Origin: Candidatus Thorarchaeota archaeon
Lineage (GTDB): Archaea > Asgardarchaeota > Thorarchaeia > Thorarchaeales > Thorarchaeaceae
Direction: 5' to 3'
Assembly: GCA_046482545.1 (NCBI GenBank)
Contig: JAWOEX010000009.1
Span: 1-64,000, forward strand
Length of the DNA: 64,000 nt
Part shown: positions 36,752 to 60,755 of the stretch, in pieces
How positions within the stretch are numbered: position 1 is the stretch's first letter
How the letters are laid out: each line of letters starts with the position of its first letter
The notes under the pieces: generated by a model
The model's input: the letters and a program-made list of their open reading frames with translations, nothing else
Database searches by the model: none
What the model was told of the DNA's origin: nothing
Made by a program: the position numbers and the translations under genes

Positions 36752-36916
36752 TGGTGGGAAGGATGGGATTTTTTGGCTGCCACTTGGAAATCAAGCAGCA
36801 CGAACCCACGATCGACGAGTCTCGCCAAGCGACGTCTATCTTTGACCCGCTCTTTACTGGCTCGAAATGAGCCGAGATCTGGAGCCCGTCGCCATACCGG
36901 ACTAGGCCACCTTCCC
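36752..36916 (-). tRNA. tRNA-Trp(CCA) with two introns: 37/38 (36821-36878) and T-loop, probably 56/57 (36772-36801)
   Basis: Cloverleaf restored after removing both BHB-like introns; encoded CCA. Confidence 0.88.
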
Positions 36917-37189
36917 ATGCAAGACAGACCTGTGAACAGCCTATAGGTCGCCGAGATAATCACGGTCTGTGTAGATAGAGGCAGTAATGGGTTTGGATAT
37001 GAAGTTTTCGCCAAGGGAATCGATTGTAATTTCAAATCTCATAGAGGAAGACGGGAATCAAAAGGTTTAGCATCGATAAATACTATCATGTAGCTGGCCT
37101 AAGTGGAACGGGTAAAACGAGAACTGAGCATCAAAAGAATCACAAACAGGAATGACGGTTAGTGAGTGAGAAATATGGACGAGGAAGGT

Positions 37190-37864
37190 ATGGTCTTGCA
37201 CCGGGTGGCTGGCGTAGACGAAGCTGGACGCGGTCCCATGATTGGCCCTATGGTCATCTGTGGTGTAGCATTCGATGCAGGGGACATTCAGAAACTTGAA
37301 TCTCTGGGCGTTAAGGATTCGAAGCTACTGACGCCAAAAAGACGGGAAGAGCTAAACCAGAGCATCTCACACCTCGCCGAGAAGATTGTCATCAAACCGA
37401 TATCAGCGGCTGAGATAGACGCCGCTCGGAAACGAGGCACATCGCTGAATGATATCGAGCTCGATGCTTTTGTGTCGATCATTGGGGAGATTCAGCCCTC
37501 TGAGGTATTTGTGGACGCAGCTGACGTTGATGCTGATAGATTTGGACGACAAATTGTTGAAAGATGTATTCTGGGTCCCAATTGCAAGGTTGTGTCAGAA
37601 CACAGAGCTGACATCACCTACCCCGTTGTATCAGCTGCATCAGTCCTTGCAAAAGTCGAACGTGACCGCAGGGTGAAGGAGTTACATGCTGTTCATGGTG
37701 ATTTTGGTTCTGGGTATCCTTCTGATTCTGTTAGTGTTCACTTCATCCAATCAGTAGTCGCACATACTGGCGACGTGCCCGACATAGTCCGAAGGACATG
37801 GAGTCCGGTCCGCAAAATCATTCTAGATGCGAACACGAAACAGTCCCAGCTCGACTCATTCTAA
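37190..37864 (+). CDS. rnhB: Ribonuclease HII
   Basis: GVDEAGRGP, DSK, VSAASVLAK, GSGYPSD. Confidence 0.96.
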   Translation: MVLHRVAGVDEAGRGPMIGPMVICGVAFDAGDIQKLESLGVKDSKLLTPKRREELNQSISHLAEKIVIKPISAAEIDAARKRGTSLNDIELDAFVSIIGEIQPSEVFVDAADVDADRFGRQIVERCILGPNCKVVSEHRADITYPVVSAASVLAKVERDRRVKELHAVHGDFGSGYPSDSVSVHFIQSVVAHTGDVPDIVRRTWSPVRKIILDANTKQSQLDSF

Positions 37865-37865
37865 A

Positions 37866-38825
37866 TTACTGCTCAGAACGTTCTGAAATTATTTTCTTGA
37901 GTTCGTCAGATTTCTCAATATCATCCAACTCAAGTTGCCTGATGACTGGCAATTCAGAGAGGCACTCTTCTGCCTGTCCCTCCTCAACAATGATCACTGC
38001 ACTTGAGTCCGTGACATCAGATACGCTTCTGAGAATATCTGTACGTTTCTTAAGCGCCCAGCTTCTGATTGAACCGACGCTTGACATGAGAGGCGGCCCT
38101 TCTTCCTTTGCTGCCAAGTGGAATGGTGCTCTATCGGTCCAGAGGACTCTCATTCCAAGCTTCTTGAAGAACTTATTAATCCGGCTCTCAAAAGTTGCCG
38201 GATTGGGCTGTTGAGGAGATACCCCCTCTCTCTGTATAACTTCGTCCTCAAAGAGATTCACAGGAAGGACCAAGTCAGTCTCAAGAACTTCCTCGAGACG
38301 TTCCGCCACATCCTTGCTCACGTCGACCTCATCTTTCTCGTACGACAAGATGGTTCTTGCTGACACTTCCACACAGTCTGCAAGTTCTTCCTTTGACATA
38401 CTCTTTGATAGCCTAATCTCTTTCAACCTGGCTCCATCGATTGAGACAAATCTGCCCCCTCTCTGTATGAATTCCTTGGGCATCTCCTTTTCAGTAATCA
38501 TGCTGTTGAAGCTCTTGGGCTCGATTGTAGGCACGCCATATCGTCTGTAGACGACTCCTGTGTCAAGCTTTCGTCTTCTGGTTTTTCGGCCGATGATGAC
38601 TGGAGTCGCCTCAAAGAAATGCGCAACTAGCTGAAGAGCCAGGGCATCCTCCTTGGTAAGTGCATCTATGTTGGTAAGCACCTTGATTAGGAGCAGCTGG
38701 TTGCTCCTCTTAGCTACCATATCGAAGCAGGTAGGCCTTACGTTGCACTTCGTTGATAGTTTGAATCCAGCATCATCTAGTTGAGACTTAACTTCTTGAA
38801 TCAGCTGAACTCTAGACCGGGTCAT
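37866..38825 (-). CDS. Archaeal HTH transcriptional regulator (COG1395-like)
   Basis: CFDMVAK..LIKVLTNID, central Cro-type HTH. Confidence 0.85.
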   Translation of the reverse strand: MTRSRVQLIQEVKSQLDDAGFKLSTKCNVRPTCFDMVAKRSNQLLLIKVLTNIDALTKEDALALQLVAHFFEATPVIIGRKTRRRKLDTGVVYRRYGVPTIEPKSFNSMITEKEMPKEFIQRGGRFVSIDGARLKEIRLSKSMSKEELADCVEVSARTILSYEKDEVDVSKDVAERLEEVLETDLVLPVNLFEDEVIQREGVSPQQPNPATFESRINKFFKKLGMRVLWTDRAPFHLAAKEEGPPLMSSVGSIRSWALKKRTDILRSVSDVTDSSAVIIVEEGQAEECLSELPVIRQLELDDIEKSDELKKIISERSEQ

Positions 38826-39204
38826 CTTCTATCTCGTGCCTACTCTTACATCTATGAATATCAAGATAACTAAAGGTGCGTTTGGGTGTGACTGGAATTA
38901 CCTCTTATCAATCTGTTTCAGTTATCTGTAAGCAAGATTATGGAGGGATTCTTCTTCTCAACTGCTACACTTGTTGCCTGACTAGCCGGTCACGCCATTC
39001 CCATTTGTGCAGTTTTCTCCATGGTAGGTTAATATATCCTAGGATTTTATGAACGAGAAAAAGTGTATGCTTCGTATCCGATATTGTGAAGGTGCCAGTA
39101 CCTAAGTCAATACGTCTCAGTAGTATGATTGGCAATATTCAGGGATAGGCGGGTGGTCGGCAAATGATTATTGAAAGAATCGATTTCCCGCTCTATAAAC
39201 GAGC

Positions 39205-39903
39205 TCACGATATTTTCTCTTTGACCCTCGTCACAACCATTGCATGGGCCTTCTCAAGGGGATCCAAGTCGACCCGTTCCATCACTTCAAGCCCATATTC
39301 GTCGAGTTCAGTAACTACCCGTTTGTAGATACTCTGAATGTCATCAACAGCATCTATGCTCCGTGCTTTAACTGCAATCATACCCCACGCGCCATAGGAG
39401 CAGAACGTTCTGAGATTATCGTATAGGATTCGCGCTTGGTTCACTTGAGCAATGTCTTGGTATACCACATCTATAATACCCATAAGGAATGAGGTGTATC
39501 TGTTTGGATGTCTCGCATCATCAACGATTGGCACAATATTTTCTCGCTCTTCTGATAGAACAATCAAATCTCGGGCTGTTCGTGGTGAGAATTCCACCGC
39601 ATAAACAACACCATTTGGACCTACGATATCCGAAACATGACTTACAGTGGTTCCGGAGGCTGCTCCCAGATACAAAACCCTTGAACCTCGCTGGATAGGC
39701 ATGTGTCTGACGCCTTTGATAATCGCTGCTGCCAGCTTGGACCTGTTGACTGACCAAGATCTGTATTCCTTGCCATTCACCTGAATCAGTTCCTCACCGT
39801 AGACTTTCTTTCCTGGCGTGAGTGATTGAGTCCAGAGTTTAATCTTCTTTCCTTTCTTACTCCTGAATACTCCAGGAAACTTGTACTCCTCAATTTTCTC
39901 CAT
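39205..39903 (-). CDS. flpA: Fibrillarin rRNA/tRNA 2'-O-methyltransferase
   Basis: RSKLAAAI, VLYLGAASGTTVSHVSD, DIAQ..QA. Confidence 0.96.
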   Translation of the reverse strand: MEKIEEYKFPGVFRSKKGKKIKLWTQSLTPGKKVYGEELIQVNGKEYRSWSVNRSKLAAAIIKGVRHMPIQRGSRVLYLGAASGTTVSHVSDIVGPNGVVYAVEFSPRTARDLIVLSEERENIVPIVDDARHPNRYTSFLMGIIDVVYQDIAQVNQARILYDNLRTFCSYGAWGMIAVKARSIDAVDDIQSIYKRVVTELDEYGLEVMERVDLDPLEKAHAMVVTRVKEKIS

Positions 39904-39904
39904 T

Positions 39905-41098
39905 TCAGCTTCCCCCCTTTCCTTTCTTAGATTTGCTTGATGGCGGCTCAGGATACTTCCGTTGAATCTCCTCAATTTTCTCTTCGAACTCAGCCCTAAG
40001 CTTGGCTCCAATATTACGTTTTGAATACGCATCTACTCGAGCTGCGATGGACAACTTACCTGCTAGGGCTCTGGAAATGTTCCCCCGCTGCCAGTATGGG
40101 GCTGTATGAATTTCTGGCAGCTGATAAATCACACCATGCTTAGGGGGTGCAGCACCTGTCTTAAGACTCCTGAACAATGCTTTTTCTGCACCATAAACTT
40201 GAATGGTGCTGGAGGGTTTTCTAGCTAAATCCTTGAGAGATCCAGCATGACTAAGGAGCCTAGCAGCAATCAACGGGCCCACAAGTGTTGACATATTTGG
40301 AGCCACTTCTCTCATGACTTTCTCAACGTATTTTTGCAAATTATGTCTGAGCTCGACAAGTCCACGTAGCGTTTCTGCAAGATTACGAATTATTTCTGCA
40401 TCCTCAGGTCTGATATCGGCACCAGTATCCCTCGTACGGTTTGCAGCGATGGCTTCCACGTTCTTCTGACTTAATCCCAGTTTGCCGAGATTCTCCGAGG
40501 TTATCTCATTCTTAAGGCCAATCTCTGAGATTATGGTTGCTAGGGTTTCTGGGTTCTCTACTTCGTTTACGAGCGTGGGAAAATGTAGCGAATACCATTC
40601 TTTCAACCGCATATCCATTTCATTGATGGAACGATCTACTTCATCAACTGAGTCGATTGCCTGTTTCACGAGTAAATCTCTTCGTTCCGTTGCTGCCCGT
40701 ATTCGATTCCTAGCAATATGGATTGCCACTTCTTTCCGGAAGCGTATGGAATCATCCTCTGATTCTAAAATATCCTGCTCGATGAGTTCTTTCTCACCTG
40801 TCGTTCTAAACCACTTGATAGGTGAACTAATTTGTTCAACTTCAACCTGCAAATTGCAGGCATCTTGGACTGCTTCTTTCAACCAACGAGTCTCTACTAT
40901 AACTACTTTAGCATCATTACGCGGGATTTCATTGATTATACTGTCCAACAGATTTGTTGAGTTGCCTCTCCGTATGGAGATAAGGTTACGAGATGATTGT
41001 TCGATATCGGGATATGCCATCCGATTAGCCAGAATGTTACCTTCCTTGTCAAGAAGGAAAGCTCCCAGCGCATTCATCGTGAGATAGACCCGCGTCAT
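39905..41098 (-). CDS. nop5: Nop5 (Nop56/58) C/D RNP protein
   Basis: EWYSLHFP, APN, PSSTIQVYGAEKALF, PKHG. Confidence 0.95.
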   Translation of the reverse strand: MTRVYLTMNALGAFLLDKEGNILANRMAYPDIEQSSRNLISIRRGNSTNLLDSIINEIPRNDAKVVIVETRWLKEAVQDACNLQVEVEQISSPIKWFRTTGEKELIEQDILESEDDSIRFRKEVAIHIARNRIRAATERRDLLVKQAIDSVDEVDRSINEMDMRLKEWYSLHFPTLVNEVENPETLATIISEIGLKNEITSENLGKLGLSQKNVEAIAANRTRDTGADIRPEDAEIIRNLAETLRGLVELRHNLQKYVEKVMREVAPNMSTLVGPLIAARLLSHAGSLKDLARKPSSTIQVYGAEKALFRSLKTGAAPPKHGVIYQLPEIHTAPYWQRGNISRALAGKLSIAARVDAYSKRNIGAKLRAEFEEKIEEIQRKYPEPPSSKSKKGKGGS

Positions 41099-41244
41099 GT
41101 ATCGTCTCTCTTCCTTTCTGAGTTGAATAGTCGAATAAGTGTGTTGGCAACCCATTATTTTATGACCAGTGAAAAAAATGACATCCATCTATTTTCGCTG
41201 GTCTTATTACCCCGAACGTATCATCGACCACCGACGGTGATTCA

Positions 41245-42114
41245 GTGAAAATCGAGGGATACTGGCTTGCATCGGGTGTGCTGGGCGTTACCGGTGCAAT
41301 CATGGCGCGAGTTGCCAGGGAGGGAGCTGATATCATCGTAACCAAATCTGTAGGCTTGGAACCACGGAAAGGCTATCCCGGGCCGAATATCACTGCATCC
41401 CATTCAGGTCTGCTGAATGCGGTTGGCCTTACCAATCCTGGTATTGATAGCTTTCTAGATGAGCTTAGAATCCTAAAAAAGCATGACGTCCCCTTCGTCA
41501 TCAGCATATTTGGTCGCACGGAGAACGAAATTACCCAAGTGGCCAAGAAAGCGTTTGAAGCCGAACCATCAGCTCTTGAGCTCAATTTATCTTGTCCTCA
41601 TGCAGAGATAAGTCAGATAGGCCACAGTCCCAAATTGACTAGGAGTTTCGTAAAGGCGGTCAAAGGCACAGTCTCCCTCCCAGTTTTTGCAAAACTAACT
41701 CCTAATGCCAGTGATGTTGTTGCTGTAGGCAAAGCGGCTGAAGAGGCCGGAGCAGACGCTATTGTTGCTATCAATACAGTTCGAGGGATGAGGATTGATA
41801 TCAAGCAGAAAGCACCGGTCTTAGCAAACAAAGTTGGAGGTCTTTCTGGTCCTCCCATCTTTCCCGTAGCTGTGCGCTGTGTCTATGATCTCTACTCTGC
41901 ATTGTCTATACCAATAATTGGTGTAGGCGGGGTATCAACATGGGAAGATGCGGTAGAAATGCATCTAGCCGGAGCAAGCGCGATTCAAATCGGAACGGCA
42001 ACTCTCGGTGGGCTGGATGTTTTTACTCGAATTCGAGAAGGAGTAGAGGAATATCTGGCTCGTGAAGGATTTACCGATATTTCTGATATTGTCGGTTTAG
42101 CAGGGAGGACCTAG
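41245..42114 (+). CDS. pyrD: Dihydroorotate dehydrogenase, catalytic subunit
   Basis: NAVGLTNPG, ELNLSCPH, KLTPN, GGLSG. Confidence 0.95.
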   Translation: MKIEGYWLASGVLGVTGAIMARVAREGADIIVTKSVGLEPRKGYPGPNITASHSGLLNAVGLTNPGIDSFLDELRILKKHDVPFVISIFGRTENEITQVAKKAFEAEPSALELNLSCPHAEISQIGHSPKLTRSFVKAVKGTVSLPVFAKLTPNASDVVAVGKAAEEAGADAIVAINTVRGMRIDIKQKAPVLANKVGGLSGPPIFPVAVRCVYDLYSALSIPIIGVGGVSTWEDAVEMHLAGASAIQIGTATLGGLDVFTRIREGVEEYLAREGFTDISDIVGLAGRT

Positions 42115-42115
42115 T

Positions 42116-42937
42116 ATGAACTTGGAACACACAGTGGGAAATCCAACATCTGTCCAGATTACCCAGGTTGTTGACGAAAACCCGCTCTGTCATACATTAT
42201 ACTTTGATACTCCTTGGAAGGGATCAGTTGTCCAACCCGGCCAATTCGTTATGGTTTGGATACGGAATGTAGACGAGATTCCTATGAGTATCTGCTACCA
42301 AGATGACGAAGAGATGGCAATAACTGTAAAACAGGTGGGCGAAGCAACAGAAGCCCTGATGACCCTGCAACCAGAAGACTACATTGGGTTACGCGGTCCT
42401 TTTGGTAATGGATTCAGTTTGGCATCAAAGAATCCTTTGCTCGTAGGCGGCGGGATTGGAATGGCACCTCTTCGTTTTCTCACACACGAACTGATTCGTG
42501 AAGGTTCCAACGTCACTCTACTCGTAGCTGCCAAGACGGGAGGGGACTTACTTCTATTTGACTTTGAAAATCAACTTTCAGACAGTATCGAATTGAAGAT
42601 TGCAACAGATGATGGGTCAAGGGGATTAGAGGGACTTGCTACTGACCTCGCAGATTCCCTTATTCAAGAAAACGAGTTTGACAGGCTCTATACCTGTGGT
42701 CCGGAGATCATGATGGCAGGTCTTTGTAAATCCGCTGCACATCATGGAATCCCTCTGGAAGCGTCCCTTGAAAGATACATGAAATGCGGATGCGGTATCT
42801 GTGGAACCTGTGCGATGGACCCGCAAGGTCTCATGGTATGCGTGGATGGACCCGTATTTTCGGACAAACAGCTGCAACAAATCGATGAGTTCGCCTCTTA
42901 TACACGTGATTCCACAGGCAAAAAGCAACCGTTGTAA
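42116..42937 (+). CDS. pyrK: Dihydroorotate dehydrogenase electron transfer subunit
   Basis: PGQFVM, GPFGNGF, MKCGCGICGTC..VC.DGPVF. Confidence 0.95.
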   Translation: MNLEHTVGNPTSVQITQVVDENPLCHTLYFDTPWKGSVVQPGQFVMVWIRNVDEIPMSICYQDDEEMAITVKQVGEATEALMTLQPEDYIGLRGPFGNGFSLASKNPLLVGGGIGMAPLRFLTHELIREGSNVTLLVAAKTGGDLLLFDFENQLSDSIELKIATDDGSRGLEGLATDLADSLIQENEFDRLYTCGPEIMMAGLCKSAAHHGIPLEASLERYMKCGCGICGTCAMDPQGLMVCVDGPVFSDKQLQQIDEFASYTRDSTGKKQPL

Positions 42938-43144
42938 CACAACAAGGCCGGAACGCGGTTCTGATATTCAGCTGCTTTCTCAGTCCTTCAGTGAGATACA
43001 GCTTGAATACGGAGTAATAGATGTAAAAAGTGAAGATGTGACTTGGCTATTCTGCGGCCAAGTCAAATACAAAATTGCCCTATATCACAATTTACAGTAT
43101 CGTTTCTTTGCGAAGCTTTGGAAACGTCGTTGAAATCTACTTGA

Positions 43145-43300
43145 TTAGCGGCCTTTGACCTTACCCTTCACAAAACGCCGGACATAATTACGTTTATTGC
43201 GCACGCGGGGAATGGGAGAATGTCGTTCCTTTCCATCAACCTTAGGTGTCTGCTCCCTAACTTTTCCCGCCTTTGTCAGTGAACCATGTGATCCTGGCAT
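43145..43300 (-). CDS. rps30e: 30S ribosomal protein S30e (not in ORF track)
   Basis: [30 protein letters not shown]. Confidence 0.95.
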
Positions 43301-43436
43301 CATTCATTCCTCTTTGTCTTCTAACCTTGATTTTGCAAAGTGATGTTATAAGGCTATTCACTTGGCATGGCTAATCTCCTGTCCTTTAGATACAACCAAT
43401 GATATTAAACTACAAAATGCAAATCTGAGAATCGTC

Positions 43437-45032
43437 ATGTCGGCTGAAGAACACCATCTTCACAGAGCAATCATACAGGACATTCTACAATCAGATGATG
43501 TCTTAGACCGCCGTGACATCAACGCGATTAAGAAGAAAGCATGTGCTGAATTCGGTGCATCCCGTGTACCTTCCAACGCGGATGTGCTTCAAAGTGCTAC
43601 AGAAGATGAGTGGGATGAGCTACAAACCCTTCTTCAAAAAAGGCCTGTTCGAACGGCCTCTGGTGTGGCTGTTGTTGCGGCAATGACCGAACCTCATGAA
43701 TGCCCTCATGGCCAATGTGCTTACTGCCCGGGTGGCCCAAAGCTTGGGGTCCCTCAAAGCTATACAGGGCATGAACCAGCAACGATGAGGGGTATCCAGA
43801 ATGCTTTCGACCCGTATCTTCAGGTCAAAAACAGATTGAACCAGTTGAGAGCGACTGGACATTCTGTACAGAAAATTGAGCTCATTGTGATGGGTGGAGA
43901 TTGGTGTTCAAAGGATAGAGCCTACCGGGAATGGTTTGTAACCGGGTGCCTAGAGGCTATGAACGGCGAAATCAGTAATGATTTCGAACAGGCCAAGAAG
44001 AAAAATGAAACTGCTGACGTTCGGAATGTCGGAACAACTTTTGAAACTCGCCCCGACCAGATTTCTCAACAAACCGTGGATGAGATGCTGGAACTAGGGG
44101 GAACGCGCGTAGAAATTGGTGTTCAGACGTTACGCGATGATTTACTCACCTATGTTAACAGGGGTCACGGGGTAAAGGAAATCAGCAAGGCTACACAGAT
44201 ACTTCGTGATACTGGACTCAAAGTATGTTACCATATGATGCCTGGTCTTCCTGGTAGCTCTATCGATGCCGATATCGCAGATTTTGAACATCTTTTCCAT
44301 GATGCGCGCTTTCAGCCTGATATGATGAAAATCTATCCGACTATCGTGGTCGCTAATACCAAGCTCTACAATTGGTGGAAGAACGGTGAGTATGAACCAT
44401 ATACCAATGACGAAATCGTGGAGATGGTTTCACGCGCTGTCAGCAAGATGCCAGAATACGTTAGAATCCAGCGCATGCAGCGCGATATTCCCATACACCA
44501 AATTGAAGCCGGACTAAGCAAAGGAAATCTACGAGAACTTGTTCATGACTGGATGAAGGAAAGAAATATGAGAAATCCTACAATCCGCTATCGTGAAATT
44601 GCCCATTTCCAGAGACGCTCAGATGAAATGGTGAAACCCGAGAACATTGAACTTATTGAACGTACCTACCCTGCCTCCGGTGGCAATGAAGTATTTCTTT
44701 CCTTCGAAGAACCTAACTTGGATGTGATACTTGGCTTTCTGAGGCTTCGGAAACCGAGCAACAAGGCACATAGAAGAGAGATTTCCGAAGTCCCATCTGC
44801 CATCATACGGGAGCTTAGGGTTTATGGCCCGGTGGTCAATATTGGTGAACGGGATGAGGAATCTTGGCAACATCTCGGTCTCGGAGAGCAGCTCCTTGTA
44901 AGAGCTGAACAGATTACAGAGAACGATTTTGGAGCTGAACGATTACTTGTTCTCAGCGGGATTGGAGTGAAGGAATACTACCGCAACCTTGGCTTCAATG
45001 ATTGTGGCCCCTATCTTGCCAAGTTCATCTGA
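43437..45032 (+). CDS. elp3: Elp3 tRNA U34 carboxymethyltransferase
   Basis: CPHGQCAYCPGG, QSYTG.EPA, ETRPD, QHLGLG, GVKEYY. Confidence 0.96.
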   Translation: MSAEEHHLHRAIIQDILQSDDVLDRRDINAIKKKACAEFGASRVPSNADVLQSATEDEWDELQTLLQKRPVRTASGVAVVAAMTEPHECPHGQCAYCPGGPKLGVPQSYTGHEPATMRGIQNAFDPYLQVKNRLNQLRATGHSVQKIELIVMGGDWCSKDRAYREWFVTGCLEAMNGEISNDFEQAKKKNETADVRNVGTTFETRPDQISQQTVDEMLELGGTRVEIGVQTLRDDLLTYVNRGHGVKEISKATQILRDTGLKVCYHMMPGLPGSSIDADIADFEHLFHDARFQPDMMKIYPTIVVANTKLYNWWKNGEYEPYTNDEIVEMVSRAVSKMPEYVRIQRMQRDIPIHQIEAGLSKGNLRELVHDWMKERNMRNPTIRYREIAHFQRRSDEMVKPENIELIERTYPASGGNEVFLSFEEPNLDVILGFLRLRKPSNKAHRREISEVPSAIIRELRVYGPVVNIGERDEESWQHLGLGEQLLVRAEQITENDFGAERLLVLSGIGVKEYYRNLGFNDCGPYLAKFI

Positions 45033-45070
45033 GAAGACCCTAATAGGCCTAAGTCGAGCAGAATAAGATT

Positions 45071-45188
45071 TGGCGCCGAGGAGGAGATATGTCCAGCCAG
45101 ACGAACTGTCTTGACTTTCGAACTCCTGAGTGCATCTGCACACTGGTTTTCAAGACCAGCGCCTTAATCCGGGCTTGGCTACCTCGGC
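45071..45188 (-). tRNA. tRNA-Ser(TGA) with 29-nt T-loop intron at 58/59 (45089-45117)
   Basis: Long variable arm, G73, central helix GUUC/GGAC, encoded CCA. Confidence 0.9.
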
Positions 45189-45290
45189 AAACTGTGACTG
45201 CCCAGATTCTGTAGGCAACCAACTGCCTTGAGTGGCTAAGAAACGCCTTTTAAGCTTCTTGGAGTGTTGTTCATTGAAGTTGGTTAAGAG

Positions 45291-45722: not shown

Positions 45723-45735
45723 AGGATGATATCCT

Positions 45736-47723: not shown

Positions 47724-47739
47724 GAGAAGGTGGTTATCA

Positions 47740-48528: not shown

Positions 48529-48539
48529 GGTGTGTCAAT

Positions 48540-48803: not shown

Positions 48804-48816
48804 GTGGTGTTTGATA

Positions 48817-50055: not shown

Positions 50056-51317
50056 AATCTCTAATTGATTCGGCACGTGACCACAGTAAACATGAACAAA
50101 GAGATTCCAAAAACCGCGATATGGGACAAGCTCGAATCCTTGTCGTTGGCTGTGGTGGTGCAGGCAATAATACAGTAAAACGACTCATGACTATTGGAGT
50201 ACAGGGAGCTGAATGTGTTGCAGTGAATACTGATCGGCAACATCTTTCAGTTACAACCGCTCATCGCAAGCTACTCATTGGTGAGAGAATTACCCGGGGT
50301 CTCGGTGCAGGGGGCTATCCCCATGTCGGGCAGGCTGCAGCTGAGGAATCATCCCACGAGCTAACAGAGTTGCTGCGAGATGCTGATTTGGTATTCATTG
50401 CTGCCGGTATGGGTGGCGGAACTGGCACGGGGGCTGCTCCCGTTGTGGCTAAGATAGCAAAGAAGAATGATGCCATAGTTGTCGGTGTAGTTACTATGCC
50501 GTTTGAACTCGAACGGACTCGCATTGACAAAGCGAAATCAGGCTTGGCTCGACTGCAAAAGAACGCAGACACAGTAGTTGTCATAGATAACCAGAAGCTC
50601 ATGGAATTAGTGCCTGACCTTCCGCTGGAAGAGGCCTTTGGTGTTGCCGATGAAGTGCTTGCTGGCATGGTAAAAGGCATCACTGAAACAATCACGATGC
50701 CTAGTTTAATCAACCTCGACTACGCTGATGTCCGCTCTATCATATGTAACGGTGGTGTGGCTCTGGTTGGGCTGGGAGAGGCAAGTGATGAGAATCGGGC
50801 AGAAGAAGCTATTAAGAACGCATTGAACAGCCCCCTTCTTGAGGTAGAATGGACCGGGGCAACTGGTGCACTTATCCACATAACAGGCGGACCTGATATG
50901 TCGCTTTCGGAAGCAAACAATGTCGGCCAAATCGTATCCGATAGGATGAGTGATTCTGCTAATGTAATCTGGGGTGCACGTGTAGATCCACGATTGAGTG
51001 GAATACTGCGCGTGATGCTCATTCTAACTGGCGTAAAGAGCCCACAGCTGCTTCCCCGTTCAAAGGAATCCAAAACAGAGGAGAAAGATACATCAGTTAC
51101 GCGGAAACGGCTTGCCGAGTTCGGTCTTTTCAGCAACCCCTCTCCCGCAAACACCAAGGCACAATCTCAATCGATTGGCAAATTTCCGCCGGTTCGGAGC
51201 CGCTCTTGGGAAGATAGATTGAAGCCTCCAAGTGAACGCTTCGAACGGCGAAAGCAACAGAAGAAGGAAGAAAAGAAACCGAAACTGGATGATTTGGGCT
51301 TGAAGAGAATCTTCTAA
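50052..51317 (+). CDS. ftsZ: Cell division protein FtsZ
   Basis: GGAGNN, GMGGGTGTG, NLDYAD. Confidence 0.97.
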   Translation: MKSLIDSARDHSKHEQRDSKNRDMGQARILVVGCGGAGNNTVKRLMTIGVQGAECVAVNTDRQHLSVTTAHRKLLIGERITRGLGAGGYPHVGQAAAEESSHELTELLRDADLVFIAAGMGGGTGTGAAPVVAKIAKKNDAIVVGVVTMPFELERTRIDKAKSGLARLQKNADTVVVIDNQKLMELVPDLPLEEAFGVADEVLAGMVKGITETITMPSLINLDYADVRSIICNGGVALVGLGEASDENRAEEAIKNALNSPLLEVEWTGATGALIHITGGPDMSLSEANNVGQIVSDRMSDSANVIWGARVDPRLSGILRVMLILTGVKSPQLLPRSKESKTEEKDTSVTRKRLAEFGLFSNPSPANTKAQSQSIGKFPPVRSRSWEDRLKPPSERFERRKQQKKEEKKPKLDDLGLKRIF

Positions 51318-51916: not shown

Positions 51917-52049
51917 CTTTGATTGATTATACTACTCAAAAAATCGGTTATGCTGTTTTAAAAGTGGTGCTAATGGCGGTAGTGTTAGCCTATTTCCCCC
52001 TTGGTCATAGGGAATTAATTATTAGCTCCTTGGCCTTGTTGGCAATCGT

Positions 52050-52889: not shown

Positions 52890-52894
52890 TAGCA

Positions 52895-53422
52895 ATGCAG
52901 AAAGAAATTCGAATTGCTGGCACAGGCGGCATGGGTGTAGTACTGGCTGGAGTGATAGTTGGTCATTCTGCAGTGGTCTATGGTGGTCTGAATGCGGTAC
53001 AGAGCCAGAGCTATGGGTCGGAAGCTAGAGGCACAGCTGCAAAAAGCGAAGTCATCGTAGGTGATGGTGACATCCATTTTCCAAAGGTGAGAAAATCAGA
53101 TTTCTTCGTCGTGATGAGCCAATCAGCTCTTGACAAGTACATTGATGACGCAAAACCAGACAGCTTGGTTATAGCAGATCCGGATCTTGTGGATACATCT
53201 GGTCTTGAAGAGAACTATGAGCTCGTCACGGTTCCTGCTATGAAGACTGCAGATGACCTTGGTGTTCGCTTGGCTTCAAATATGGTAATGCTAGGCGCTC
53301 TTGTAGAGAAATCCGGCTTATTTTCGCTAGAGGCATTAGAAGGCGGAGTCAATGATATGGTTCCGGAAAGATACCTTAAAATCGATAAGAAAGCTATACA
53401 CGCTGGTGCTGAGCTCGTTTAG
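52895..53422 (+). CDS. korC: 2-oxoacid:ferredoxin oxidoreductase gamma subunit
   Basis: AGTGGMGV, YGSEARG, NMVMLGA. Confidence 0.9.
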   Translation: MQKEIRIAGTGGMGVVLAGVIVGHSAVVYGGLNAVQSQSYGSEARGTAAKSEVIVGDGDIHFPKVRKSDFFVVMSQSALDKYIDDAKPDSLVIADPDLVDTSGLEENYELVTVPAMKTADDLGVRLASNMVMLGALVEKSGLFSLEALEGGVNDMVPERYLKIDKKAIHAGAELV

Positions 53423-53697
53423 CCGCCATGTATGAGCGGTAGAATCAGCAGACTATCTCCGTCATCTAGCCGTGTATCAAGACCATCGAACAAAGTCATA
53501 TCTTTCTCATTGAGAAGTACCATAGTATTCCGGGTCACGGCTTCCACATCAGAGAATATCTGTTCGAGTTCTTTATTCTGCTGTAGAAGCTTGCCTAGAA
53601 CGTCTCGAATCTTACTGTGGTCCATTGCATTAACTAGATATATTGTCTGGATTCCATAGCTTTCCAGAGGACCGCGAAATTCAACTTTAATTGTCAT
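53419..53697 (-). CDS. MoaD/ThiS (SAMP-like) ubiquitin-fold protein
   Basis: GLDT.L.DGD..ILP, C-terminal GG. Confidence 0.88.
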   Translation of the reverse strand: MTIKVEFRGPLESYGIQTIYLVNAMDHSKIRDVLGKLLQQNKELEQIFSDVEAVTRNTMVLLNEKDMTLFDGLDTRLDDGDSLLILPLIHGG

Positions 53698-53944
53698 GAC
53701 CTTCAAACCATTGAGAAACTCATATAGTTGATAAACACCACGGCATGGACTCGGAAAGCCTAGACTTGAATAACAACTTCTATGTTTTGTTCAAGATTTT
53801 GTGTGTCACCTGATTCTCGTGCCATCGAATCCTGACCAAAATGGATAGCGCAAACGATAACTTATTCATGGGATGCTTGATTTCTCGGCAATCCAATACA
53901 ATGAAGTTATTGTAACCTGAAAGTATGATAGACAACTCAATATA

Positions 53945-55498
53945 TTGATGGATGTGAATACCTTGGGGCAAGAAGAGCGGGAGACTGATGAATCACTTGA
54001 GGGAAATGAGGAAACATCTCCTGAGGGACAAGAAATAGTCCAATCAAGTCTTCCTGCCCGGCTTCTTGGTTTTGAAAACCCAACGGAAAATGCTCTCTAC
54101 CTTGCTAAGGTACTCACTATTCTCATACCGCTCTTTGCAGGCACCTTCCAGCTGAGCACGAGTTTCTACATGATTCACATAGCAGAAACTCTAGGTGGAG
54201 GAAGCTACGACCAAGGGCTAACCTTAGTTGGCATCTTGGTCGTGATTCAGCTCGCTGTACAAACCCTCCTAGACTATCCCACAGGAGTGATTGGCGATTG
54301 GATCGGACAGCGTTACGTCATCGCGTGCGCATTGTTCAGCTATGCTGTTGCATTCTGGCTGACTGCAACGGTGACTCCGGACACGCCATTCTCGGTATTC
54401 ATAGTAATCTACGCGCTAATGGGATTTGGAGCATCTCAGGAAAGTGGGGCCTTCCAAGCTTGGTTCGACAATAACTACCGCATCGCAATGCCGCACGATG
54501 AAAAACGAGAATCTTATGGCGCGTTCTGGGGTAAAGTTGGTTCTATAAACCAGATATTCGCCACTTTGGTTCTTATCCCTGGAAGCTGGCTTGCAGTAAT
54601 ATATGCGCGAGAACTTGTCTTCAGACTCCAAGCTATTCTGGCCGTCCTTCTGGCACTAATGGTCTTGAAACTGATTAAGGACCTGCCAGGCGTTCGAGGC
54701 GAAGATGAAGAGAGCCGATCATTTGAGGAGTATACTTCCATCATGAAGCGTGGAGTCCGTTTCCTTGTTTCAGATCCTTTTGTTATCTTCTTCATACTGG
54801 GGGAAGTCCTGCTCCTTAGCGTTGGCCCACTTTGGTGGAATCTGCTGCTATTTCCACTGTACTTCAACTACCTGGTTACCGAAGTCGCTGTTTCCTCCTA
54901 CAGGACGCTGATATTCGTACCAAACGCGGTCTTTCAGGAGCGAACTGGCATATGGGCCAAACGATTTGAACCAAAGAAATGGATTCCGCGATTTCGCCTT
55001 GCACAGTTCAATGGTTTTCTTGCATTACTTGGGCTTGCGGCTCTCACCTTTGTGTTTCCACGGGCACCTGCAGGTGCTGAAATGGTAAATATCGTAATTC
55101 CGTATCTTAATCTTGCAATCATTGAAGTTCCCACTGTTTCACTGGTCCCTGTACTGCTGATGTTCATCATTTTCGTAGTAACAGGCATATTTGGCGGGCT
55201 TGCCAGCATACTAAGTCAGCGTATTATGATAGATGTTGTTCCCAATAAGATTAGAAACAGTCTCTATTCGTTACGTCCGACTTTGGTAATGATTCTGTCA
55301 ATGCCACTGATAGCGTTCTTTGGTTGGTTTAAGCCAGCTTTCGGTTTTCCTGCTACCTTCGCTCTTTGTGCTATCATCCCTCTACTCGGAGTATTGGCGA
55401 CGAAGAAGGCCCTTAGCTACCCGATACCGAAAGCCGAACTGGTGAAGCCTGCTACCGAGGATGAGCGAGAAGAAGTTGAAGAGCTAGACGTGACCTAA
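53945..55498 (+). CDS. MFS transporter
   Basis: DYPTG..GD..G.R motif, SGAFQAW, about 12 TM. Confidence 0.85.
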   Translation: MMDVNTLGQEERETDESLEGNEETSPEGQEIVQSSLPARLLGFENPTENALYLAKVLTILIPLFAGTFQLSTSFYMIHIAETLGGGSYDQGLTLVGILVVIQLAVQTLLDYPTGVIGDWIGQRYVIACALFSYAVAFWLTATVTPDTPFSVFIVIYALMGFGASQESGAFQAWFDNNYRIAMPHDEKRESYGAFWGKVGSINQIFATLVLIPGSWLAVIYARELVFRLQAILAVLLALMVLKLIKDLPGVRGEDEESRSFEEYTSIMKRGVRFLVSDPFVIFFILGEVLLLSVGPLWWNLLLFPLYFNYLVTEVAVSSYRTLIFVPNAVFQERTGIWAKRFEPKKWIPRFRLAQFNGFLALLGLAALTFVFPRAPAGAEMVNIVIPYLNLAIIEVPTVSLVPVLLMFIIFVVTGIFGGLASILSQRIMIDVVPNKIRNSLYSLRPTLVMILSMPLIAFFGWFKPAFGFPATFALCAIIPLLGVLATKKALSYPIPKAELVKPATEDEREEVEELDVT

Positions 55499-56449
55499 TG
55501 CTTTCCTTACCATCACCACGTTGATTTCGCCTGCACGGTAAATCATCTCCGCATCTATATCCATGATTGAGACTTGTGCAGGACTAAAGAGCCGCTGATT
55601 CCTATCATTGGGATTGTAGTCTGCGTCCTTATATAACTTCGAAAATGACTTCCCGTAGCTTTCCGAGTAGTTCGAACATGCCTCCTGAACCATCTCTTCA
55701 AGGTTGATATCTTCTTCTGGAGTAACGAAGAAATGTGTTCTCCCACCATATGCTAAACATTCATTGCTGGCTACCATCGCAAGATAATCATCGTCCATTT
55801 TCGGACGGAAAGGTGCTACCCCATATCCACTCCTGAATTGACTTGGTTTCATTCCCAGTTTGTATAGCCTATAGATACCGACTTCGACGGTCCTTGCCGC
55901 TATCTGGACAGAACCTGCGATACTGGCAGTCGGAACAAGAACACAATAGAGGTTAGATGGGAGAACGTCACAAGTGTCTGCTATTGACTCCAGCACGTTA
56001 TCCGGAGGATATTGGCGCGTTTCCAGAACAAGCACTGCACAACCCCCATCATCAGCATAACCAATGTTATCAAAGAGATTTGTCTCGACTCTAGCTCTTG
56101 CTTGGGCAGGACCCGACCCCATGGCCGAATACTCGGGATATCTCAACCTCCATCTTGCTAATTGTGAACCGAGTGTTGCAATGACAGGTTCTTGTGTCGC
56201 CACCATGACACCCTGAACGGTCATGTCTCCAATATGTACTTGGACGATACGGACTGCAGCTAGGCCACCCATACAGATCTTCCCAATCAATCTGCCTGCT
56301 TCAACGGAGCCTGCGACTTCTATTCCTGCATCAACAAGCGTTGCTCCGCATGTGGTGTGTGTTACCTTGCAGCCCAATTCATTGGGTCTTTCCGTGAGAT
56401 TCTGGAGTATTTGCAAAGCCCTTTCGTTGATGCTTGGACTCAGACTCAT
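55484..56449 (-). CDS. mch: Methenyl-H4MPT cyclohydrolase-like protein
   Basis: DAG, ICMGGL, MGSGPA, PTASIAGSVQ..R..E, YGG, FSPA. Confidence 0.85.
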   Translation of the reverse strand: MSLSPSINERALQILQNLTERPNELGCKVTHTTCGATLVDAGIEVAGSVEAGRLIGKICMGGLAAVRIVQVHIGDMTVQGVMVATQEPVIATLGSQLARWRLRYPEYSAMGSGPAQARARVETNLFDNIGYADDGGCAVLVLETRQYPPDNVLESIADTCDVLPSNLYCVLVPTASIAGSVQIAARTVEVGIYRLYKLGMKPSQFRSGYGVAPFRPKMDDDYLAMVASNECLAYGGRTHFFVTPEEDINLEEMVQEACSNYSESYGKSFSKLYKDADYNPNDRNQRLFSPAQVSIMDIDAEMIYRAGEINVVMVRKALGHV

Positions 56450-56619
56450 ACAATCTACCCGTTTTCTATTGAAATATATTATAGCCTGAAACGCGCGCGC
56501 TCTTCATAAACCCTTTAGGTACAAATCTTTAGTCACAAGTAGAAAACTTTAAGGCCGTTGTAATAGCCGAGAGCGCTGTGCCTCGGTCTGCAATCATGTG
56601 ACCCGGTTCATGGATGCAA

Positions 56620-56756
56620 GCCCCAGTAGCTCAGCCTGGTTAGATCGCATCCTTGGTATGGACGTCCGATTTCCGGACTAGCCGAACAGGATGAGGCCGC
56701 GGGTTCGAGGAAGCTATTGATTCCCAGTAGTTTCGAAACTCCCGCCTGGGGCTCCA
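56620..56756 (+). tRNA. tRNA-Thr(GGT) with two introns: 37/38 (56659-56687) and T-loop 59/60 (56710-56739)
   Basis: BHB helices UUGG/CCGA and UUCG/CGAA; encoded CCA. Confidence 0.9.
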
Positions 56757-56803
56757 CTATTTCTATTTCCATGCAAATTGCCTAGTCCTATTGTTTCTGG
56801 CCG

Positions 56804-57121
56804 GTGCAAAAGCAAATATGGGGCATGTTGCATTGGCATCAGGTCATGTGGAGGAGATTAACTGTGGAGAGAGAATATCCTCCAACCCTACTTCTTACTG
56901 CGCTAGGTGATACTCGTGTTGATCCAATGCATGCGTTGAAAATGACTGCTCGACTTCAATACAATGTGGCCCCTCTTGATGAGGAGCGGCCGATTCTTCT
57001 CTACACGGAGAGCAAGGTGGGGCATGGGGCAGGGACTTCAAAAGAAAGGGCCATAGAAATTATGGTCAAGTCATTCACTTTCAGAGCTCATCATATAGGT
57101 ATGGATATCTCAAGTGAATAG
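56804..57121 (+). pseudogene. Prolyl oligopeptidase C-terminal fragment
   Basis: YPPTLL..DTRVDPMHALK..PILL..GHG (catalytic D/H region only). Confidence 0.7.
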
Positions 57122-57347
57122 ATGTCTGATTCAGAACTGGGAGAATGATAGTGACAATGATACAAATTTACAACCGCTTCAGCCCTTCTTCCATTTTCCC
57201 GAGGTTGTTCAGCTCAAAAGCGGGTTGTTTGTTTCAACTATCTGCATGGCTCGGTTCATGGATGGGTTTGAAATTTTGAGTATCTCGCCTGAGCCGCATC
57301 AACTTATCCTTGGATTACTCAAAGCGGTGGTCGCGAACATAGCCATT

Positions 57348-57695
57348 TTATGCCATCTCAGGTATTTCGGGTCGGGCTGCATCTCGTAGATCCTCTGTTT
57401 TTCTTATACGCTTGAGTGAGCGGTAGATTAAGAAGACGCCAATGATGCTCAAAGCGATGACACCTACCAGAAGGCTCACTACGAATACAATTACGTCGGC
57501 CGGATTGTAGAGATTTGAAGTGGCAATGAGTATAGTCAGCAATGACATGGGTATAGCAAGTATTGCGGTTCCAGTGCGCAACTCTGCAAGGTGTGTTCGC
57601 TTCTCAGCCTCAAGTATTCGAATTATGGATAGCTTAACCCTTATACCCCGAGCTGCGTTCGGTGGTAAATCGATTTCTTCAGATTCAGAATTCAA
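57348..57695 (-). CDS. Small 2-TM membrane protein (DUF202-like)
   Basis: AEKRTHLAELRTG followed by two TM helices. Confidence 0.6.
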   Translation of the reverse strand: MNSESEEIDLPPNAARGIRVKLSIIRILEAEKRTHLAELRTGTAILAIPMSLLTILIATSNLYNPADVIVFVVSLLVGVIALSIIGVFLIYRSLKRIRKTEDLRDAARPEIPEMA

Positions 57696-57754
57696 AAAAA
57701 CCCTCCTCGGAAAGGATTACGGAGTCATTGTGGTCATTGCATTATCTCGCGTTG

Positions 57755-57958
57755 TTATTCGGTGTTTTTCTCGTTCAGCAGTTTCTTTGCCTTTTCTGCC
57801 CCGACTAGCTTTCGAATCTTTCGTTGTGCTTCGGGCGAATCTTTCTTATCGAGTAGTTTTTCGAGCTCCCTCCTTACTGCAGGCGAGAGATCCCGCGCGA
57901 GCTTCTTGAGGCGCTCTTTCCGATCCTTGTCAAAATCGTCAGGCCCTAACAAACTCAA
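57755..57958 (-). CDS. Small charged hypothetical protein
   Basis: 67-codon helical ORF. Confidence 0.5.
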   Translation of the reverse strand: MSLLGPDDFDKDRKERLKKLARDLSPAVRRELEKLLDKKDSPEAQRKIRKLVGAEKAKKLLNEKNTE

Positions 57959-58072
57959 CTTGTCAAACCCATATTAGCTCACTATTTGAGCTTATTTGAC
58001 CTTTATGTTATCAAAGACAGCTACACAACTAAAAAAAGATGGTAGCCGGTATTCCAAATAGTGACTTCAGCC

Positions 58073-60466
58073 ATGTCTAAAAAACTAGGACCTGTTCATG
58101 ATATCGGCATTCAAAAGAACCATGTCGACTACTCCTGTGAAAATGGAAAGGCAAGAATCACAGTAGTCTCTCCTAAAATTGTGAGAGTTCAAGTGACCCG
58201 CGATGAACACTACAGGCAAGAACCATCGGTTGCAGCTGTTGATAGGCAACAAAACGTCTCCCTTGATTTCCGTAGGAAAAATGGCGCATCCATGATTTCA
58301 TGGAGGACTTTCACACTAGCGGTCACTCTAGAAGATGCTGCAATTCGCATCGAGGACCAAACTGGTTCAATCCTAATCGAAACTCCAGCAGGCTTTGGAC
58401 TTGGCTGGCACGATGACAGTTTTGTTTGCAGAATAAAGAGCTCTGGTGGCGAGTACTTCTATGGAATGGGCGAGAAAACAAACGGGCTTGACAAATCCGG
58501 TCTGCATTATGAGATGTGGAATAATGACAATCCACACCACGATTCTGAGACTGACCCGCTGTACCAGAGTGTTCCCTTTTTCATCACATTACGTGACGGA
58601 ACTGCACATGGTATCTTTTTTGATAACACCTTCCGGACTCAATTTGACTTCAGACAACAAAGTGATGATTTCTATTCTTTTGGTGCCCCCGGAGGTCCAA
58701 TCGACTATTACGTGATACTTGGCCCTTCGATAGCAGAGGTGTTGGATGGTTACACCTGGCTGACCGGTCGCCCTCATTTCATGCCTCTATGGGCTTTGGG
58801 GCACCACTGGTCGAGATGGGCGGAGTACGAGAGTCAAGAGGAAGTACTGAACGTTGCTAGCGCCTTCAGAAAACACAATATCCCCTGCGATACCATCACA
58901 CTTGACATCGGCTACATGGATGAATTCAAAATCTTCACATGGAATCCGGAGGTCTTTCCGAACCCGCGCGGATTCGTTAAGAAACTGACAGATTTGGATT
59001 ATCACGTTATGGCTATTATCGATCCAGGCATCAAGCTCGAAGAGGGTTACAGGCTGTATGATGAAGGCATTGAGAATGATTTCTTCCTCAAAGAGAAAGA
59101 CGGTAAGGTGTACGTTGGCCTGGTATGGCCAGGAAGAACAGTATTTCCCGATTTTTATCGCGAGGAAGTGCGAGAGTGGTTTGCTTCTCAGTATGAAGAC
59201 TTCATGCAATCCGGGCTAAGTAATGCAAGCTGGTTAGACATGAATGAACCCAGCAACTGCATGTACCCTGGGCTTCGAGAGGAGTATTCCATGAAGGATG
59301 TTGTAGACTCTAAGGGTAGGCCTTGGGAACCAAGGATGCGGAACAGATACGCTCTTGACATGATGCGCGCTGTTTTCGATGGATTGAAGGAGGTTTTCCC
59401 TGATGAACGTCCCTTTATACTGACTCGAGCTGGGTTTGCCGGCTATCAGCGATATGCGGCCACATGGACTGGCGATAATCATTCTACCTGGGAGTACCTA
59501 GCTCTCTCCATACCGATGCTGCTCAATCTTGGACTATCGGGTATACCATTCTGTGGTGCTGACATCGGCGGTTTTAGTGATGATGTGACACAGGAGCTGT
59601 TGATTCGGTGGTATCAGCTCGGCAGTCTCTATCCTTTTTCCCGCAACCATACGAGAATCAATACTTCACGTCAAGAGCCGTGGGAGCTTGGCGAAGAGGC
59701 CATTGCTAACGCTCGGAAATATATCTCATTCCGATATCGCTTCTTGCGGTACTTCTACTATCTCGCGAAGCAAGCCAACGACTCTGGGCTGCCCATCATG
59801 CGTCCCCTTGTGCTGGAGTTCCAAGATGATCCTACGACGTATGAGATTGATGATCAGTTCATGATCGGCTCAAGCATGATGGCTGCTCCAGTGCTTGAGA
59901 AAGGCGCTGAAAACCGCAGTGTGTATTTCCCACCAGGAGAGTGGTTTGATTACTGGACAAACGAGCGAATTGAAGGCGGCCAGAGAATCACGGTTTCGGC
60001 ACCCCTTGATACCATGCCTGTTTACTTTAGGGGCGGATCAGTAGTTCCAACAGGAGATGTAGTCCAAACTACCGACAAAGACCAAGGCGACCTTCGAATT
60101 CTGGTCTATCCCGAGGGGGAAGACTGCATTGAGTTATACGAAGATGACGGGATTTCTGAGGCTGGTCCGTCGGCTGTAATATTGATGAGCACCTCTTGTG
60201 ATGAAGATAGCCTGTCCATTCACGTATCTGAGAGGCGGGGCGACTGGACACCACCGTCGCGAAACCTGATTATCGAATTCAGGGCCGTTGCAGAAGAACC
60301 CCGTACCATACAAGTAGATGGCACGACTATTCCTGTTGATTTCGCGTCCGCTAACGGTGACCAAGATATGATTGTGCGGGCAGCAGCCTATCATCCCGAA
60401 ACCAGTACCTTCGAAATTGAACTCGAAGATGATGGGGCTGCCCATAAACTCTCATTTCGAAAATGA
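58073..60466 (+). CDS. GH31 alpha-glucosidase
   Basis: WLDMNEPS nucleophile, WTGDN, GADIGGF, RNH. Confidence 0.95.
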   Translation: MSKKLGPVHDIGIQKNHVDYSCENGKARITVVSPKIVRVQVTRDEHYRQEPSVAAVDRQQNVSLDFRRKNGASMISWRTFTLAVTLEDAAIRIEDQTGSILIETPAGFGLGWHDDSFVCRIKSSGGEYFYGMGEKTNGLDKSGLHYEMWNNDNPHHDSETDPLYQSVPFFITLRDGTAHGIFFDNTFRTQFDFRQQSDDFYSFGAPGGPIDYYVILGPSIAEVLDGYTWLTGRPHFMPLWALGHHWSRWAEYESQEEVLNVASAFRKHNIPCDTITLDIGYMDEFKIFTWNPEVFPNPRGFVKKLTDLDYHVMAIIDPGIKLEEGYRLYDEGIENDFFLKEKDGKVYVGLVWPGRTVFPDFYREEVREWFASQYEDFMQSGLSNASWLDMNEPSNCMYPGLREEYSMKDVVDSKGRPWEPRMRNRYALDMMRAVFDGLKEVFPDERPFILTRAGFAGYQRYAATWTGDNHSTWEYLALSIPMLLNLGLSGIPFCGADIGGFSDDVTQELLIRWYQLGSLYPFSRNHTRINTSRQEPWELGEEAIANARKYISFRYRFLRYFYYLAKQANDSGLPIMRPLVLEFQDDPTTYEIDDQFMIGSSMMAAPVLEKGAENRSVYFPPGEWFDYWTNERIEGGQRITVSAPLDTMPVYFRGGSVVPTGDVVQTTDKDQGDLRILVYPEGEDCIELYEDDGISEAGPSAVILMSTSCDEDSLSIHVSERRGDWTPPSRNLIIEFRAVAEEPRTIQVDGTTIPVDFASANGDQDMIVRAAAYHPETSTFEIELEDDGAAHKLSFRK

Positions 60467-60645
60467 AAGTTCTACTCTCTAACCTGTTTTGATTTCAGTT
60501 GAGTTCACTTCCTCTTCTGTTTTGGAGGGAGTTATCTAACTCATATACTTCGACACACGAATTCTAAGACACTCCAATCGCCTGTTTAGGTATCTTTCCA
60601 CTACTCTTATAATGCGAATTGATGGAACCATGCCTTGCAATCACT

Positions 60646-60755
60646 GGGTCGGTGGTCTAGCTATTCCGTTAGAATCAGTCTAACGGAACTAGTGTGGCGA
60701 AGATTCTCGGTTTGGGTCCGAGTGATCAGGCGTTCAAATCGCCTCCGGCCCACCA
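60646..60755 (+). tRNA. tRNA-Pro(TGG) with 32-nt D-loop intron (60663-60694)
   Basis: Central helix CUAG/CUAG, 10-bp intron stem, encoded CCA. Confidence 0.9.

Follow-up and report, generated by a model that had tools for sequence, protein, structure and literature searches.

A position-fixed AUUUC-type loop in the hairpin mini-introns of Thorarchaeota tRNA genes, and its possible reading at the RNA level

Splicing in archaea is generally held to read only the bulge-helix-bulge (BHB) shape, with the interior of the intron ignored. A functional conserved element does occur in the euryarchaeal tRNA-Trp intron at position 37/38, where it is a box C/D guide RNA. In the Thermoproteales, the transposed intron families are reported to consist of whole introns that are 70-90% identical (Fujishima et al. 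2010; review PMC4090602). The closest described systems are the non-canonical BHB tRNA introns of Asgard archaea (Valentin-Alvarado et al. 2024, PMC11291895; Goswami et al. 2026, 10.64898/2026.10.13.758758). The Asgard census in the second of these papers, with over 1000 intervening sequences, found almost no intron families of at least 80% identity across tRNA types and left the route of arrival open. Here we analyze a stretch of 64,000 nucleotides (nt) from a Candidatus Thorarchaeota archaeon (the window), in which five tRNA genes carry introns and five of these introns form hairpins capped by the loop AUUUC or a close variant of it.

The introns resemble those of other Asgard archaea in that tRNA genes are heavily interrupted, with introns in the D-arm and T-arm, several introns in one gene, BHB-dependent splicing and recurrent gains. 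Neither PMC11291895 nor 10.64898/2026.10.13.758758 mentions a conserved loop or hairpin feature, and the words hairpin, apical and pentaloop are absent from both. The census compared whole-intron identity only, and the Thorarchaeota are not among its named focal families. Our literature search returned no paper joining tRNA intron, archaea and pentaloop. Compared with the Thermoproteales families, only five loop positions and the layout are held in common here, whereas the rest of the intron is at background identity. The conserved element also differs from that of the euryarchaeal Trp intron in being a short hairpin loop. A box C/D guide in the Trp intron of the window was rejected, as there is no C box (RUGAUGA), no D box (CUGA) and no such Rfam match in the window.

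We assign a probability of roughly 0.55 to the reading that the AUUUC-type loop truly marks the ~30-nt hairpin mini-introns in the tRNA genes of Thorarchaeota and acts at the RNA level, where a putative protein reads it. The motif is a degenerate loop, G-[R-Y-U-Y-C]-C, where R is A or G and Y is U or C, that begins at intron nucleotide 11, 10 nt past the 5' cut. In the layout that these introns share, one bulge nucleotide is followed by a stem of 9-10 base pairs (bp), the 5-nt loop, the return strand and a 6-nt tail, which supplies the 3' bulge and a strand of the central BHB helix. With the consensus G-[A/G][U/C]U[U/C]C-C, the loop always starts about one helical turn from the 5' cleavage site, on a stem of free sequence.

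The genome (G000; 3.05 Mb in 45 contigs, 45% G+C, the window being C38:1-64000) was compared with two sister species of the same genus (G001 and G002) and with more distant relatives. ARAGORN in default mode found no tRNA in the whole 64-kb window, so that all five window tRNA genes were missed, and an Rfam search of the window at the gathering score matched only 5S rRNA and the eL15 leader. Because the intron option of ARAGORN handles anticodon-loop introns only, we wrote our own BHB scanner (4-bp central helix, two 3-nt bulges, cut after the second bulge nucleotide). Genome-wide, 1.48 million BHB candidates were spliced in silico and ARAGORN was re-run on the products; eight tRNA genes, with one mismatch in the central helix, were curated by hand. 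The resulting 46 anticodon species are the standard archaeal set, and 30 of the 46 tRNA genes contain BHB introns, 37 in total, with lengths that cluster at 28-32 nt. In the window, the genes for tRNA-Trp and tRNA-Thr(GGU) have two introns each and those for tRNA-Ser(UGA), tRNA-Pro(UGG) and tRNA-Met one each, and all five encode the CCA end. With the introns removed, the tRNAs form clean cloverleaves; ARAGORN scores Thr, Pro and Ser at 119-121, and a mature tRNA of 74 nt was reconstructed for Trp. All four central-helix pairs form in both Thr-GGU introns, in Ser-UGA and in Pro-UGG, and three of four form in both Trp introns, a relaxed form. The splicing genes are present in G000: EndA alpha (187 amino acids, aa) and EndA beta (199 aa), in both of which the two Pfam endonuclease domains are found, and RtcB (603 bits). 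As judged from sequence, the window introns are ordinary BHB introns on every criterion that can be tested, and the new element is the conserved, position-fixed loop.

A preliminary description of the window had listed six intron loops and proposed that they share an AUUUC-type sequence on stems that differ but stay paired. All six loops lie at the positions given there, and each caps a paired stem of unrelated sequence. The shared motif holds for both Trp introns, both Thr introns and Ser-UGA (AGUUC, one change away); the Pro loop, AUCAG, is off motif and off register. The same description had suggested a check for enrichment in the full intron set, and this enrichment was found: ATTTC occurs in 6 of the 36 distinct introns of G000, a count reached by 1 of 5000 composition-preserving shuffles. 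AUUUC is the pentaloop in five of them (Trp 37/38, Trp T-loop, Thr-GGU 37/38, Ser-GGA D-loop and Lys-CUU T-loop) and stands in a different register in the sixth. Near variants are GUUUC (Lys-UUU), AUUCC (Thr-GGU 59/60) and AGUUC (Ser-UGA). As a background set we used 1664 genomic hairpins with BHB-like flanks, in which R-Y-U-Y-C has a frequency of 1.2%, U at loop position 3 of 28.5% and C at loop position 5 of 21.8%. U at intron nucleotide 13 (U13) is present in 19 of the 28 G000 introns of 28-32 nt, versus the 28.5% of the background (p = 2e-5). The strict motif at nucleotides 11-15 is found in 5 of these 28, or in 6 if the Trp T-loop intron takes the register of G001.

In the relatives, introns were called by alignment of each locus to the mature tRNA rather than by the BHB motif, and a BHB score served afterwards to place the boundary. 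Some 30 genomes, which represent 16 genera of the family, supplied orthologous genes for Trp, Thr-GGU, Lys-CUU, Ser-GGA, Lys-UUU, Thr-CGU and Ser-UGA, with Asp, Pro-CGG, Leu-GAG and Arg-UCU as by-catch at the same loci, and the Infernal-detectable intron-bearing tRNA genes of three further genera were added. The family set comprises 252 distinct introns from 31 genomes, 192 of them 28-32 nt long. A position table was made by aligning introns by their 5' ends, without any folding. Across the 71 distinct 30-nt introns, positions 10-16 read G-A-U-U-U-C-C, with U13 in 75% and C15 in 68%, and the stem positions are near-uniform. The information at U13 and C15 is 0.6-0.8 bit, versus 1.09 bit at the conserved A of the 3' bulge. 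This A, the penultimate intron nucleotide and first base of the bulge, is the most conserved position (57 of 71), and nucleotide 1 is A or U in 58 of the 71.

Rivals based on base composition fare poorly here. Chance or a composition bias, such as T enrichment of unpaired sense-strand DNA by deamination, could draw on the overall U-richness of the loops, yet it is excluded by the shuffles and the background hairpins, and we give it hardly any credence. Deamination was rejected specifically because C15 is enriched rather than depleted, the opposite of a C-to-T bias.

The register of the motif is sharp. R-Y-U-Y-C starts at nucleotide 11 in 38 of 150 introns, and adjacent starts account for at most two each. 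Its 5' offset is equal in 29-nt introns, in 30-nt introns and in the 58-nt Trp intron, which ties the loop to the 5' splice site, approximately one helical turn away. The motif is in sense orientation in 35 of 124 introns and its reverse complement in none of the 124. Thus, it is a signal of the transcribed strand, and an orientation-neutral DNA palindrome is excluded. A DNA-level signal could still take the form of a palindrome with an asymmetric centre, the footprint or target of an enzyme that inserts 30-bp hairpins into DNA. A ruler is suggested by the sharply fixed length, which is 30 nt in 71 of 161 distinct introns, and G000 does contain transposon-related repeats. However, the arms offer an enzyme no conserved binding sequence, the orientation is tied strictly to the transcribed strand (35:0), and the census found no association with mobile elements (10.64898/2026.10.13.758758). 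We regard a DNA-level signal as very improbable.

The loop could alternatively be a structural cap with no protein reader. A loop rich in pyrimidines on a closing G-C pair, perhaps with a UUU-type triloop above an R-C pair, would then be favoured because it folds fast and avoids pairing with the exons. A pair between R11 and C15, either G-C or protonated A-C, is indeed conceivable and would reduce the loop to a YUY triloop; nucleotides 10 and 16, which close the loop, are G-C in 22 of the 35 motif introns, and a fixed register follows from a fixed stem length. Against this, position 11 prefers A over G (25 versus 10 of 35) although G-C is the more stable pair, and many other loops would do as well. 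We know of no special stability of an AUUUC-type loop. Within the same transcripts, the hairpins of the 37/38 introns do without the motif. A purely structural cap is, in our estimate, quite unlikely. A pairing of the loop with the 3' half of the T-loop (RAAU) was compared by eye and rejected, as it reaches four pairs at most and is inapplicable to D-arm and anticodon-arm introns.

The first genes queried in the relatives had been chosen for the motif in G000, and we therefore split the sites by selection status. Among introns of 28-32 nt, the strict motif at nucleotide 11 is found in 13 of 26 at the same site as a G000 motif intron. At other, non-canonical sites it is found in 23 of 104 (22%), versus 1.2% of background hairpins, and its reverse complement in 1 of 104; AUUUC is the commonest pentamer there. 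At other sites in the 37/38 region it is found in 1 of 34 (3%). By region, 19 of 37 T-arm introns carry the motif and 2 of 28 introns at 37/38, and it is present in 18 of the 40 introns with a long inner helix and no outer helix. In the unselected whole intron sets of the three other genera, U13 is present in 14 of 19 (p = 6e-5) and C15 in 10 of 19 (p = 0.003). As U13 and C15 are enriched there though the strict motif is rare, we conclude that the family-wide core is N-N-U-N-C, sharpened to AUUUC in this and several other genera. When the phylum was searched with tRNA-Lys(UUU), only three introns came from beyond the family; their nucleotides 11-15 read AUUUC (one base after the called register), CGGGA and AGCAA, which is uninformative on wider spread.

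Two causes of the shared loop had been offered in the preliminary description, recent transposition among tRNA genes from one ancestor and selection for a functional loop. Outside the loop, the identity in register among G000 introns is 27.0% (best pair 64%), compared with 26.7% for random background hairpins. One recent ancestor therefore does not explain the pattern, and recent transposition lacks support as its general cause. Whole-intron identity of ~70-80% or more across tRNA types within one genome, as in transposed families of the Thermoproteales type, was not found in G000. Copying as such does take place: the Lys-CUU 56/57 intron (G000 C28:207662-207691; also in G001) and the Arg-UCU T-loop intron of G001 and G002 (L087, L086) are identical at 29 of 30 positions. 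These sequences clearly record the copying of an intron between genes for different tRNAs, and the Arg-UCU gene of G000 itself is without the T-loop intron.

This copy event is consistent with shared descent without function, in which one old mini-intron would have spread by copying or gene conversion, most easily between near-identical T-arms, leaving the loop as an undecayed remnant. The predominance of the motif in T-arm introns points the same way, as these could move between tRNAs without re-fitting of the tail. So do the scatter of loops around AUUUC by single changes (GUUUC, ACUUC, AUUCC, AUUAC, AGUUC) and the uneven strength of the motif, which is strongest in some genera and weak in others. 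On the other hand, the motif is also found in D-arm, anticodon-stem and 37/38 introns with differing tails, and it recurs at about 17 different tRNA/site classes. In Thr-GGU, introns were gained at five different sites in different genera, several with AUUUC or GUUUC on unrelated stems. G009 and G024 are species of a single genus whose introns at one site share the loop on unrelated stems, and the published census finds almost no sequence families. Five genera have AUUUC or GUUUC as the loop of the Lys-CUU 56/57 intron, and identity at this site is 0.81 in the loop versus about 0.45 in the stem. This is the only clear site; pooled between-genus identity, 0.55 in the loop versus 0.48 in the stem, is not striking.

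Shared descent without function also predicts that unconstrained loops decay faster than stems. Within genera, the non-motif introns differ at 28.9% of loop and 9.0% of stem positions, and they behave as neutral theory predicts. In motif introns the corresponding values are 11.6% and 10.5%, and motif loops persist on randomised stems, which argues against an undecayed remnant. We consider shared descent without function unlikely, if not strikingly so. Selection for a functional loop fits better with a signal that is strand-specific, fixed in position and spread over about 17 tRNA/site classes; it falls short of proof, as the rate contrast is significant only with non-independent pairs. The sequences are no more than suggestive of purifying selection on the loop.

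Several observations weigh against constraint on the loop or its reading by a protein. The strict motif is far from universal, with 6 of 28 introns in G000 and 1 of 19 non-canonical introns in the three other genera, so that many introns presumably splice without it. The copying between Lys-CUU and Arg-UCU genes is a further such point. The binomial p-values given above overstate the significance, as related genomes are not independent. The within-genus contrast in loop rates has p = 0.005 over all, non-independent, pairs and p = 0.39 with one pair per site. At the Thr-CGU 59/60 site, the stems of the three species of the genus are similar and their loops read GUAUC, AUUUC and AAAUA. We sought a fused loop reader in EndA and found none: EndA alpha and EndA beta are of ordinary size and domain content, with no extra RNA-binding module, so any contact with the loop would come from the known subunits or from another partner.

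The free stem, the fixed loop, the fixed 5' distance, the strand specificity and the enrichment in relaxed non-canonical motifs are together best fitted by RNA-level reading of the loop. In addition to the BHB motif, the loop would give a putative protein a second determinant to read. The likeliest reader would be the splicing apparatus, either the (alpha-beta)2 EndA or a partner of it, and the loop would then help to place relaxed BHB motifs at non-canonical sites. Next in line would be a factor that recognises the compact excised intron for clearance; this intron, once circularised, as what is known of RtcB makes probable, would be a 9-bp dumbbell. Each of these takes a share of the probability assigned to protein reading as a whole, and on its own the splicing machinery is a possible reader, while the clearance factor is an outside candidate. 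Phage coat-protein operators, boxB and iron-responsive elements are protein-recognised hairpin loops on free stems. In them, as here, loop and geometry are kept and the stem is free to covary, although the analogy is one of logic only.

Tentatively, we extend this to the proposal that Asgard BHB splicing has a second sequence-specific determinant, an apical R-Y-U-Y-C loop 10 nt from the 5' cut, which a dedicated factor or the endonuclease would read to license the splicing of 30-nt mini-introns or the clearance of small circles. If this is true, a conserved, strand-specific and position-fixed loop would overturn the shape-only view for the prokaryotes that stand closest to the eukaryotes, the Asgard archaea. 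It would also provide a handle on two questions of the 2026 census preprint, namely why certain sites and lineages gather introns and how introns persist. The loop is also a simple, testable signature by which hidden mini-introns may be located, whether in tRNA genes, rRNA genes or protein-coding genes, and annotation would be improved by it.

The tRNA-Trp(CCA) gene of the window (36752..36916, minus strand) was delimited by sequence and splice reconstruction and has orthologues in 24 family genomes. Its 58-nt 37/38 intron (36821..36878, minus strand, central helix 3/4) begins with a 6-bp hairpin whose loop, AUUUC at 36864-36868 (GAAAT on the plus strand), starts at intron nucleotide 11. In 10 genomes this first hairpin has covarying stems and the loops AUUUC (five), ACUUC (three), UCUGC and GAUUU, so A-Y-U-U-C is kept in 8 of 10 despite compensatory stem changes; G043, added to the set later, has AAUUC. 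Two further elements past the first hairpin are kept across genera (orthologues L002-L018): another hairpin (GGGGUC...GACCGUCG) and a 3' end that resembles GAAGACA. Other genera have a 30-34-nt version of the intron (AUCUUAUGA...GGGGUCAUAA) without the first hairpin. The T-loop intron of the same gene, at site 56/57, is 30 nt long (36772..36801, minus strand; a 1-nt shift to 36771-36800 is possible), with a 9-bp stem and the loop AUUUC at 36787-36791. Its register was taken from the orthologue in G001, whose loop is GUUUC and whose central helix is 4/4, compared with 3/4 in G000.

The tRNA-Thr(GGU) gene (56620..56756, plus strand) scores 120.9 in ARAGORN after double splicing. Its 29-nt 37/38 intron (56659..56687, plus strand) has a 5-bp hairpin with the loop AUUUC at 56669-56673, starting at nucleotide 11, a 4/4 central helix and a 5-bp outer helix. 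The intron of G001 is identical and the loop of G002 is AUUAC. The 30-nt T-loop intron at 59/60 (56710..56739, plus strand) is a perfect hBHBh' (central helix 4/4, outer 5 bp, inner 9-10 bp) with the loop AUUCC at 56720-56724. Since it is missing in both sister species, it is a recent gain. The T-arm intron of tRNA-Ser(UGA) (gene 45071..45188, minus strand, ARAGORN 119.0) is 29 nt long (45089..45117, minus strand), with a 4/4 central helix, outer and inner helices of 3 and 5 bp, and the loop AGUUC at 45103-45107 (GAACT on the plus strand), starting at nucleotide 11. The orthologous introns of G001 and G002 carry AUUUC, one substitution away.

Two window introns stand outside the motif. The D-arm intron of tRNA-Pro(UGG) (gene 60646..60755, plus strand, ARAGORN 119.6) follows nucleotide 17 and is 32 nt long (60663..60694, plus strand), with a 10-bp stem and the loop AUCAG at 60674-60678. 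The initiator-like tRNA-Met(CAU) gene (16604-16713, minus strand) has a 31-nt 37/38 intron (16643..16673, minus strand) whose loop is without the motif, an internal contrast to the motif introns.

Beyond tRNA genes, a genome-wide search found the motif in 5 of 130 30-nt BHB hairpins (3.8%) versus 1.2% of the background, too few to call. One motif-bearing hairpin outside tRNA genes in the window (51050-51079, minus strand) was put down to chance, as it is antisense to an intact open reading frame of 421 aa. At the 16S and 23S rRNA loci, a scan for BHB introns gave results too noisy for interpretation. A hairpin start of about 20 nt (ACUAGGC-AAGUG-GGCUAGUG) lies at window positions 28602-28625 and recurs in at least 11 other places in G000, on many contigs.

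The gene for EndA beta is followed on contig C28 by one for a PINA-type (PRK13764) ATPase of 424 aa (L136:179-1453, minus strand), in which the N-terminal PIN part of the profile is missing. The two genes are probably co-transcribed, as the second overlaps the EndA beta stop codon by 4 nt; we did not link this ATPase to the loop. The tRNA-Phe(GAA) gene (C14, minus strand, plus-strand coordinates 14373-14481) has a 32-nt 37/38 intron that is flanked by a direct repeat, CUGAA, and has a best central helix of 2/4. The repeat looks like a target-site duplication, or the junction like a very relaxed BHB motif. Twin genes for tRNA-Arg(CCG) and tRNA-Arg(GCG), 473 nt apart on C26 (minus strand), differ at the wobble base only and contain the same 34-nt D-loop intron with a 10-bp stem and the loop AUUAU. 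ARAGORN also detected a 91-nt tRNA-SeC(UCA) at C34:60819-60909 (plus strand), with a weaker match in G021 (L294), consistent with selenocysteine use in Asgard archaea.

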